Program-made: the position numbers and the translations under genes
Shown: positions 13,435 to 13,692 of the stretch, piece by piece
Numbering within the stretch: position 1 is the stretch's first letter
Layout: each line of letters opens with the position of its first letter
The notes under the pieces: generated by a model
Database searches by the model: none
Seen by the model: the letters and a program-made list of their open reading frames with translations, nothing else
What the model was told of the DNA's origin: nothing
From: Escherichia coli
Lineage (GTDB): Bacteria; Pseudomonadota; Gammaproteobacteria; Enterobacterales; Enterobacteriaceae
Assembly (NCBI RefSeq): GCF_002854065.1
Contig: NZ_CP024147.1
Direction: 5' to 3' (one strand)
DNA: 64,000 bases

Positions 13435-13692
13435 TTAACGCGGAGAAATCCCGTAATGTGCAATGCAGCGCCAGCCACCATCCTGCTGACAATAAACTGA
13501 TTCCGTATGCCCAGGGATCACCCATTGAATTTCCTCGCCAGGCGGACAGGTCAGCCAAATGCATAACCCGCAGCCGCCGCGTAAATCACGGGGAATATCG
13601 CTGACGCGAAAAGTCATGCCCGCTGCCTGCAACGCCTTGCGGGTTTGTATGACGCCGACCGTGGAGTGAAATAAAAACAGATACTCTTTCAT
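13435..13692 (-). CDS. Small DUF3343-like (putative S/Se-carrier-like) protein, 85 aa, translationally coupled to yjiL
   Basis: Track [50 protein letters not shown]...; its ATG overlaps the yjiL stop (ATGA). Family assignment is from pattern recognition, not a search. Confidence 0.5.

Follow-up and report, generated by a model that had tools for sequence, protein, structure and literature searches.

ytiA, a DUF3343 gene directly behind the double-cubane pair yjiM-yjiL of Escherichia coli, encodes a candidate sulfur or selenium carrier

The ytiA gene and its neighbours

The gene ytiA encodes a small protein of the DUF3343 family and lies directly behind yjiM and yjiL in Escherichia coli. We analysed it in a 64,000-nucleotide stretch of E. 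coli DNA (the window; NCBI RefSeq assembly GCF_002854065.1, contig NZ_CP024147.1). Read on the minus strand from 13692 to 13435, ytiA is an open reading frame (ORF) of 85 codons with an ATG start (Table 1). The frame was first picked out from the sequence alone, in what we call the original prediction. Its position and 85-residue translation matched exactly on re-translation; the strand, which is minus, had not been given.

The frame had also been thought to lack annotation in K-12. That was wrong. In K-12 MG1655 (NC_000913.3) it is ytiA (b4715, YP_009518833.1, "uncharacterized protein YtiA"), at 4563668-4563925 between yjiL and yjiK. The K-12 and window proteins come from the same locus (yjiL-ytiA-yjiK), are both 85 residues long and are 94% identical. 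A 601-bp query around ytiA has matches in 5385 of 5426 complete E. coli genomes, and all 30 records sampled across the ranking of the 5385 carry a coding sequence (CDS) named "ytiA: DUF3343 domain-containing protein" or "putative Se/S carrier protein", Se being selenium and S sulfur. ytiA is a real, conserved gene that is already annotated, and the finding as first stated is not novel. Because the gene is present in K-12 and in RefSeq E. coli genomes, its annotation by itself adds nothing. The value lies in the context: an E. coli double-cubane operon with a third, S/Se-carrier-like component, and Firmicutes orthologues in selenium-metabolism clusters. We offer this as a lead, not as a result.

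The start of ytiA overlaps the stop of yjiL. The ytiA ATG occupies 13692-13690 and the yjiL TGA 13691-13689, and together they form the ATGA that had been predicted. The Shine-Dalgarno sequence before ytiA is weak in the window strain (GGCAGAGAAAACGCGC-ATG); the same upstream position reads GAGGAG or GGGAGG in several other genera. As is the mark of a translationally coupled cistron, the start overlaps or abuts the upstream stop and the arrangement is kept across species. It suggests that ytiA is translated by termination-reinitiation, in which ribosomes that have finished yjiL would start again at the ATG overlapping its stop codon. That ytiA is a real, annotated gene of family PF11823, the Pfam entry formerly called DUF3343, and that it is coupled to yjiL, is in our judgement virtually certain.

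The frame had been placed in the yjiL-yjiK intergenic gap. A gap does exist, but it is only 64 bp long and lies downstream of annotated ytiA, between the ytiA stop (13435) and the annotated yjiK start (13370). No terminator was found on either side of ytiA, towards yjiL or towards yjiK, in a promoter and terminator scan, which returned nothing above shuffled expectation. An FNR-box search gave only a site with two mismatches (15726-15739, near the end of yjiN). Because about 31 such sites are expected by chance across the window, this lone site is no evidence of regulation. A program-listed ORF across the 3′ end of ytiA (12510..13481, 323 residues) is merely an upstream extension of yjiK past its annotated start.

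The two genes ahead of ytiA had been called a dehydratase-like system. That label is outdated: YjiM scores above the cutoff of the NCBIfam model NF040772, double-cubane-cluster-containing anaerobic reductase, and YjiL is its ATP-dependent activator. YjiM aligns (E value 4.5e-75) with PDB entry 6ENO, which we take to be the solved double-cubane protein of Carboxydothermus hydrogenoformans. The cluster cysteines are common to both proteins, with Cys 40, 59, 78, 108, 273, 302/304 and 335 of YjiM conserved. A review of double-cubane cluster proteins (DCCPs) makes YjiM a probable class II member and YjiL its ATP-dependent reductase; YjiM is without the N-terminal channel-closing extension (PMC7317905). 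The C. hydrogenoformans DCCP and its reductase DCCP-R (6ENO, 7YYL; PMC7317905, PMC9351452) thus share with YjiM and YjiL the cluster cysteines, a homologous activator and adjacent genes. However, the review describes a two-component system and mentions no third protein, whereas the gammaproteobacterial version adds a DUF3343 gene with an overlapping start (PMC7317905).

Table 1. Features of the ytiA region, in window coordinates.
Feature	Position	Strand	Description and basis
yjiK	12510..13370	minus	SdiA-regulated domain protein; downstream neighbour, outside the conserved module; flank differs in Klebsiella and Kosakonia
ytiA CDS	13435..13692	minus	85 residues plus stop; DUF3343/PF11823 putative Se/S carrier small protein (ORF, Pfam, RefSeq annotation)
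YtiA family signature motif, codons 32-44	13561..13599	minus	Cys41 at 13570-13572, Cys44 at 13561-13563
Overlap of yjiL stop and ytiA start	13689..13692	minus	ATGA; yjiL TGA within ytiA ATG-A (sequence)
yjiL	13689..14456	minus	ATP-dependent activator, BcrAD_BadFG / acyl-CoA dehydratase activase type (TIGR00241, 358 bits, cutoff 125; RefSeq)
yjiM	14466..15617	minus	DCCP ([8Fe-9S]) homologue, first gene of yjiM-yjiL-ytiA (NF040772, 531 bits, cutoff 350)
yjiN (DUF445)	15733..17013	minus	Upstream neighbour (RefSeq); syntenic with yjiM-yjiL-ytiA in many Enterobacteriaceae

Conservation and gene neighbourhoods of ytiA

A YjiM alignment served as query against a GTDB set with one genome per species, and the best 80 loci, at 57-96% identity to YjiM, were retained (loci are numbered here with the prefix L). 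The best 120 YjiM homologues listed were near-identical enterobacterial proteins only, and the scan of genome contigs was used instead for diversity. Six-frame ORFs of the 80 loci were searched with newly built DUF3343 and YjiL hidden Markov models. A BcrAD_BadFG-type activator gene adjoins yjiM in 69 of the 80.

A DUF3343 ORF follows yjiL directly in every one of the 25 gammaproteobacterial loci (Enterobacterales and Aeromonas). These loci span Escherichia, Citrobacter, Klebsiella, Raoultella, Kosakonia, Cedecea, Trabulsiella, Hafnia, Morganella, Aeromonas and others, and they support the suggestion that the gene is a third component of the yjiL-yjiM system in this lineage. The DUF3343 start overlaps or abuts the yjiL stop in 24 of them; in the remaining one the start could not be placed by our script. 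The junctions are ATGA or GTGA (-4), TAATG or TGATG (-1), and -11 in Hafnia. The flanks vary and the trio stays. The downstream side is taken by yjiK in E. coli and by an espX6 island in O157:H7; Klebsiella and Kosakonia have DUF2955, MFP and MarR genes there. Upstream of yjiM a DUF445 gene is found in 17 of the 25 loci, directly in Kosakonia and with MFS and DUF2164 genes between in Klebsiella. We consider it probable that YtiA works together with YjiM and YjiL.

YtiA evolves much faster than YjiM, because in one low-GC, enterobacterial-like contig (L009) YjiM is 81% identical to that of the window and the DUF3343 protein only 37%. By the Nei-Gojobori method, ytiA has a dN/dS of 0.15 when compared with its K-12 allele and of 0.15-0.26 when compared with Klebsiella and Kosakonia, where dS is saturated between genera; in the same comparisons yjiM gives 0.05-0.06 and yjiL 0.06-0.22. 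These values indicate purifying selection, and the frame is intact in Escherichia, Citrobacter, Klebsiella, Raoultella, Kosakonia, Atlantibacter and others.

The protein is a clear member of its family. YtiA matches PF11823 (Se_S_carrier) with an E value of 6.1e-14 and 51.7 bits over residues 3-59 (model positions 1-57 of 69), so that the DUF3343 assignment made from sequence alone is confirmed. We found 142 YtiA homologues. Of the 120 that were listed, 118 have a precomputed match to PF11823, and the genera represented include Escherichia, Citrobacter, Klebsiella, Raoultella, Kosakonia, Atlantibacter and Phytobacter. At 85 residues YtiA has the size of a stand-alone family member (about 80-100 residues), and its homologues are mostly 76-91 residues long; truncated variants, for example of 56-62 residues, also occur in the protein collection.

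Cys41 is the only universally conserved reactive residue of YtiA, as judged from the alignments. Twenty-one columns are invariant among 23 enterobacterial homologues, among them D32, I33, P34, R35, L37, R38, G40, C41, G42 and L43, which fall in a block D-I-P-R-x-L-R-x-G-C-G-L; the C-terminal third is variable. The CGL motif that had been noticed is thus real (GGCGLC). In this clade the pattern C41-x2-C44-x4-C49 is nearly invariant. Among 1.84 billion representative proteins a profile search picked out 114 relatives, of which we aligned 29 full-length distant ones (20-40% identity). Here F8, P34 and C41 are invariant, and the CxxC pair is kept in about 17 of the 29. Cys41 is present in all eight of the DCCP-linked Firmicutes copies described below.

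A confident AlphaFold2 model of YtiA, built from the 23-sequence alignment, shows an alpha/beta domain (predicted local distance difference test 87.4, predicted template-modelling score 0.77). It has strands at residues 2-8, 43-49, 63-70 and 73-79 and helices at 11-24 and 53-57, with Cys41 at the end of a less confident loop (29-42). In this model YtiA would be a single-domain ferredoxin-like protein that carries Cys41, within the motif P-R-x-L-x-x-x-C-G, at the end of a flexible loop. PII, CutA and UreE are examples of the many small regulators and chaperones with a ferredoxin-like fold. A PDB sequence search with YtiA returned no relative, the best match (E 0.054) being a Cys-rich ferredoxin-type stretch that is not credible. 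NCBIfam holds no model for YtiA; its sole match, to adenosine deaminase (E 0.17), is spurious.

What is proposed of the family concerns selenium and sulfur. In passages on DUF3343, Lin et al. 2015 propose, from comparative genomics, that it is a Se/S trafficking chaperone with a highly conserved cysteine, typically 80-100 residues long (PMC5322559). YtiA resembles the family described there in its size, its model match, its conserved cysteine and the motif P-R-x-L-S/R-x-x-C-G. In those passages, however, the family is tied to YedF and selenocysteine (Sec) lyase neighbourhoods, whereas YtiA follows a double-cubane reductase and its activator; a reductase context is not discussed there (PMC5322559). 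The STRING table of the same paper names a "CoA-substrate-specific enzyme activase" as a DUF3343 partner and, at the same locus, a "2-hydroxyglutaryl-CoA dehydratase subunit" as a YedF partner (PMC5322559). From the other side, SelD-containing assemblies account for 955 of the 970 double-cubane proteins of NF040772 in Haft 2022, where a cofactor bridged by selenium is named as formally possible and the term DUF3343 is absent from the text (bioRxiv 10.1101/2022.07.06.499078). In the literature that we examined, the link between DUF3343 and double-cubane proteins is not spelled out: the DCCP review is two-component, and the selenium papers make no link to the reductase.

Distant DUF3343 genes keep sulfur and selenium company. 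Six of seven informative contigs have the gene beside YedE (Sulf_transp), TusA, YedF or Aminotran_5, and in one of the six a SelD-like AIRS protein is present as well. The seventh has it beside HGD-D and BcrAD_BadFG. The original prediction, in which DUF3343 "often" sits next to BadF/HgdC-type ATPases, was therefore overstated, with one of seven distant contexts and 8 of 55 Firmicutes YjiM loci (within 6 kb). A compact instance of this selenium-type setting is L099 (991-4565), in which two DUF3343 genes occur in divergent TusA-DUF3343 and YedF-DUF3343 pairs, and a LysR regulator is encoded beside them along with a SelD-like protein (AIRS/AIRS_C).

The Firmicutes tell a different story from the gammaproteobacteria. 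Even when filters were switched off and E values up to 10 were allowed, no more than 8 of 55 loci had a DUF3343 gene within 6 kb of the YjiM orthologue. This is well above an expectation of about 1%, which is a rough estimate and was not computed. The remaining 47 loci have none, and DCCPs therefore generally need no locally encoded DUF3343. From the 25 of 25 gammaproteobacterial against the 8 of 55 Firmicutes loci it follows that DUF3343 is an accessory of the module that is fixed by lineage rather than universal.

Where the Firmicutes do link the two, a desulfurase is usually at hand. In six of the eight loci a TIGR01977 (EF2568-type, SclA-like) cysteine desulfurase gene lies within about 1.4 kb of DUF3343, overlapping or directly adjacent in four. 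Four of these desulfurases were scored directly (410-454 bits, cutoff 377; selenocysteine lyase SclA is the next-best family) and two were assigned by BLAST similarity. The gene orders are desulfurase-DUF3343-yjiM-yjiL (L093), desulfurase-DUF3343-yjiL-yjiM (L071), desulfurase-DCCP-DUF3343-yjiL (L082 and L088), and yjiM-yjiL-desulfurase with a convergent YedF-DUF3343 pair (L060 and L062). YedF (TIGR03527) is alongside in L060, L062 and L093; selA, selB and a selenium-associated LysR gene (NF040786, 413 bits, cutoff 250) are alongside in L071. The DCCP-linked Firmicutes DUF3343 copies have CGLA, CGIS or CCGI in place of CxxC.

Two other kinds of sulfur-related gene occur near yjiM. A PatB/MalY-type C-S lyase gene (TIGR04350) lies within 6 kb of yjiM in 13 of the 80 loci, seven gammaproteobacterial and six Firmicutes (L015, L017, L020, L023, L025, L027, L033, L045, L048, L049, L055, L058 and L071). 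In L058 it scores 447 bits and is about 280 nt downstream of yjiM, another sulfur-chemistry enzyme near a double-cubane gene. In Acetoanaerobium pronyense (L044, 9199-10515, minus strand) a 439-residue stop-to-stop ORF, about 1.3 kb downstream of a yjiM-yjiL pair, encodes a fusion in which DUF3343 (E about 4e-6) forms the N-terminal domain and is followed by a HydE-like radical-SAM maturase (TIGR03956, 303 bits). The HydE family builds a sulfur-containing metallocofactor ligand.

Candidate roles for YtiA

We propose that YtiA hands sulfur or selenium to the double-cubane enzyme. Its gene, ytiA, is the last cistron of the yjiM-yjiL-ytiA unit. In the proposed scheme a cysteine desulfurase or selenocysteine lyase, dependent on pyridoxal 5′-phosphate, would load Cys41 with S or Se (as a persulfide or perselenide). 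YtiA would then offer this atom to YjiM, the double-cubane [8Fe-9S] reductase, for which YjiL would provide low-potential electrons by spending ATP. The S or Se atom might then supply or repair the bridging chalcogenide of the cluster, or the cysteine-bound species might itself be the substrate that the enzyme reduces. Our working model for such a protein is that of TusA, SufE and CsdE. These are small single-domain persulfide relay proteins with one essential cysteine on an exposed loop or at a helix start, and they are encoded beside, and loaded by, cysteine desulfurases.

How firmly can this be held? As a whole, the explanation in which ytiA belongs to the yjiM-yjiL-ytiA unit and its Cys41 carries S or Se for YjiM and YjiL is the best that we have, and we give it an even chance. 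The S/Se relay itself is more tentative, with the chances somewhat against it. More speculative still, and in our view unlikely, is a three-part S/Se-handling machine of YjiM, YjiL and YtiA in which the S or Se becomes the bridging chalcogenide of an [8Fe-9S] or Se-bridged cluster or is reduced, with energy from ATP, to free sulfide or selenide.

Several points weigh against a carrier that serves YjiM. There is no desulfurase, YedF or SelD gene near the E. coli ytiA locus, and no YedF, YedE or Sec-lyase-type gene near ytiA in the window, in K-12 or in any of the 25 gammaproteobacterial loci. The 47 Firmicutes loci with no DUF3343 within 6 kb, even at relaxed thresholds, count in the same direction. 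Our literature searches on the function of YtiA and DUF3343 found no experiment; "ytiA" yields an unrelated Bacillus subtilis L31 paralogue and "b4715" nothing relevant. The loading of Cys41 with a persulfide or perselenide is suggested only by gene neighbourhoods and one conserved cysteine. Finally, the fast evolution of YtiA and its variable C-terminal third would also fit a loosely constrained accessory protein.

YtiA may indeed be an accessory subunit of the YjiM/YjiL reductase that carries neither S nor Se. It might serve the substrate channel as adaptor or gate, help the activator to dock, or, through Cys41, Cys44 and Cys49, be a metal-binding, cluster-binding or thiol-disulfide (CxxC) redox partner. 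Such a subunit would account for the overlapping junction and for the conserved gammaproteobacterial trio. The near-invariant enterobacterial cysteine pattern suits it too, as do the CxxC pair in the majority of distant homologues and a fold that recurs in PII, CutA and UreE. However, only Cys41 is conserved family-wide, and the copies linked to DCCPs in Firmicutes lack the CxxC pair. The dominant context of DUF3343 is one of S/Se trafficking genes, not reductases, and the DCCP:DCCP-R complex, whose structures are deposited and published, is described in the review as two components with no third protein (PMC7317905). We regard this alternative as somewhat unlikely.

A role in general S/Se trafficking, for example downstream of YedE/YedF- or TusA-type proteins encoded elsewhere, is distinctly improbable. 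The place of ytiA behind yjiL would then be a convenience of co-expression only, and it is hard to see why DUF3343 should stay immediately after yjiL in all 25 gammaproteobacterial loci while the flanks change. In Firmicutes, several independent gene orders put DUF3343 next to, or in between, the genes for the DCCP and its activator, and the share of loci with DUF3343 within 6 kb (8 of 55) is well above the rough 1% estimate. Yet this alternative does explain why most sampled DUF3343 genes lie beside YedE, TusA, YedF or a desulfurase with no DCCP, and why most Firmicutes YjiM loci have no DUF3343.

That the frame is non-functional, a chance ORF or decaying remnant propagated by annotation pipelines through its Pfam match, as the weak Shine-Dalgarno sequence in the window strain, the truncated variants and a prophage interruption in strain STEC306 (see below) might suggest, is effectively refuted by conservation: an intact frame with a dN/dS of 0.15-0.26, 21 invariant columns despite saturated dS between genera, a Pfam E value of 6e-14, a conserved coupling junction and the same motif in homologues at 20-40% identity.

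The S/Se carrier remains the preferred reading. If the more speculative three-part machine of YjiM, YjiL and YtiA were real, one mechanism would cover the near-perfect association between SelD and double-cubane proteins (Haft 2022), the YedF and Sec-lyase neighbourhoods of DUF3343 (Lin 2015) and the Firmicutes clusters in which YjiM orthologues lie within selA-selB-LysR_Se-desulfurase-DUF3343 surroundings (L071, L093, L060). It would also offer a genetically tractable entry, in E. coli, to the physiological role of double-cubane enzymes. The ytiA-yjiL junction in gammaproteobacteria and the desulfurase, YedF and selAB neighbourhoods in Firmicutes together raise the question of whether Cys41-bound S or Se feeds the YjiM cluster or serves as its substrate.

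Allelic variation and insertions at the E. coli locus

The strain of the window is not K-12 and carries a divergent allele class of ytiA. This allele differs from that of K-12, with about 92% DNA identity over 601 bp and a dS of 0.185. Strains 720632 and O127:H6 are 100% identical to the 601-bp query, and the protein of strain 720632 is WP_000666413.1. Among the 5385 E. coli genomes matched by the query (window 13300-13900), 1790 are at least 99% identical, 2893 are at 90-95%, including K-12 derivatives, and 474 are at 80-90%. The dS against K-12 is 0.19 for ytiA, 0.15 for yjiL and 0.11 for yjiM. Such values appear high for core genes within the species. The sharply separated allele classes, taken with dS, suggest old recombinant haplotypes in the region.

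From the sequences compared, the region downstream of ytiA is an insertion hotspot. In O157:H7 (L094, NZ_CP017249.1, locus 3709-6482) homology to the window stops 47 nt before the ytiA stop, the gene for the type III secretion system effector EspX6 lies between ytiA and a yjiK-like gene, and the ytiA product has 88 residues and an altered C-terminal tail. In strain 720632 (L001, locus 6459-7377), whose ytiA region is the same as that of the window, yjiJ is cut by IS1 and followed by a BrnT/BrnA toxin-antitoxin pair; yjiJ is intact in the window (11264-12442, minus strand). In STEC306 (L095, NZ_CP091016.1, locus 1-3717) phage tail-fibre genes abut a 5′-truncated ytiA (a 216-nt CDS), and the record holds a second matching place. 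A prophage appears to have integrated within ytiA near its 5′ end.

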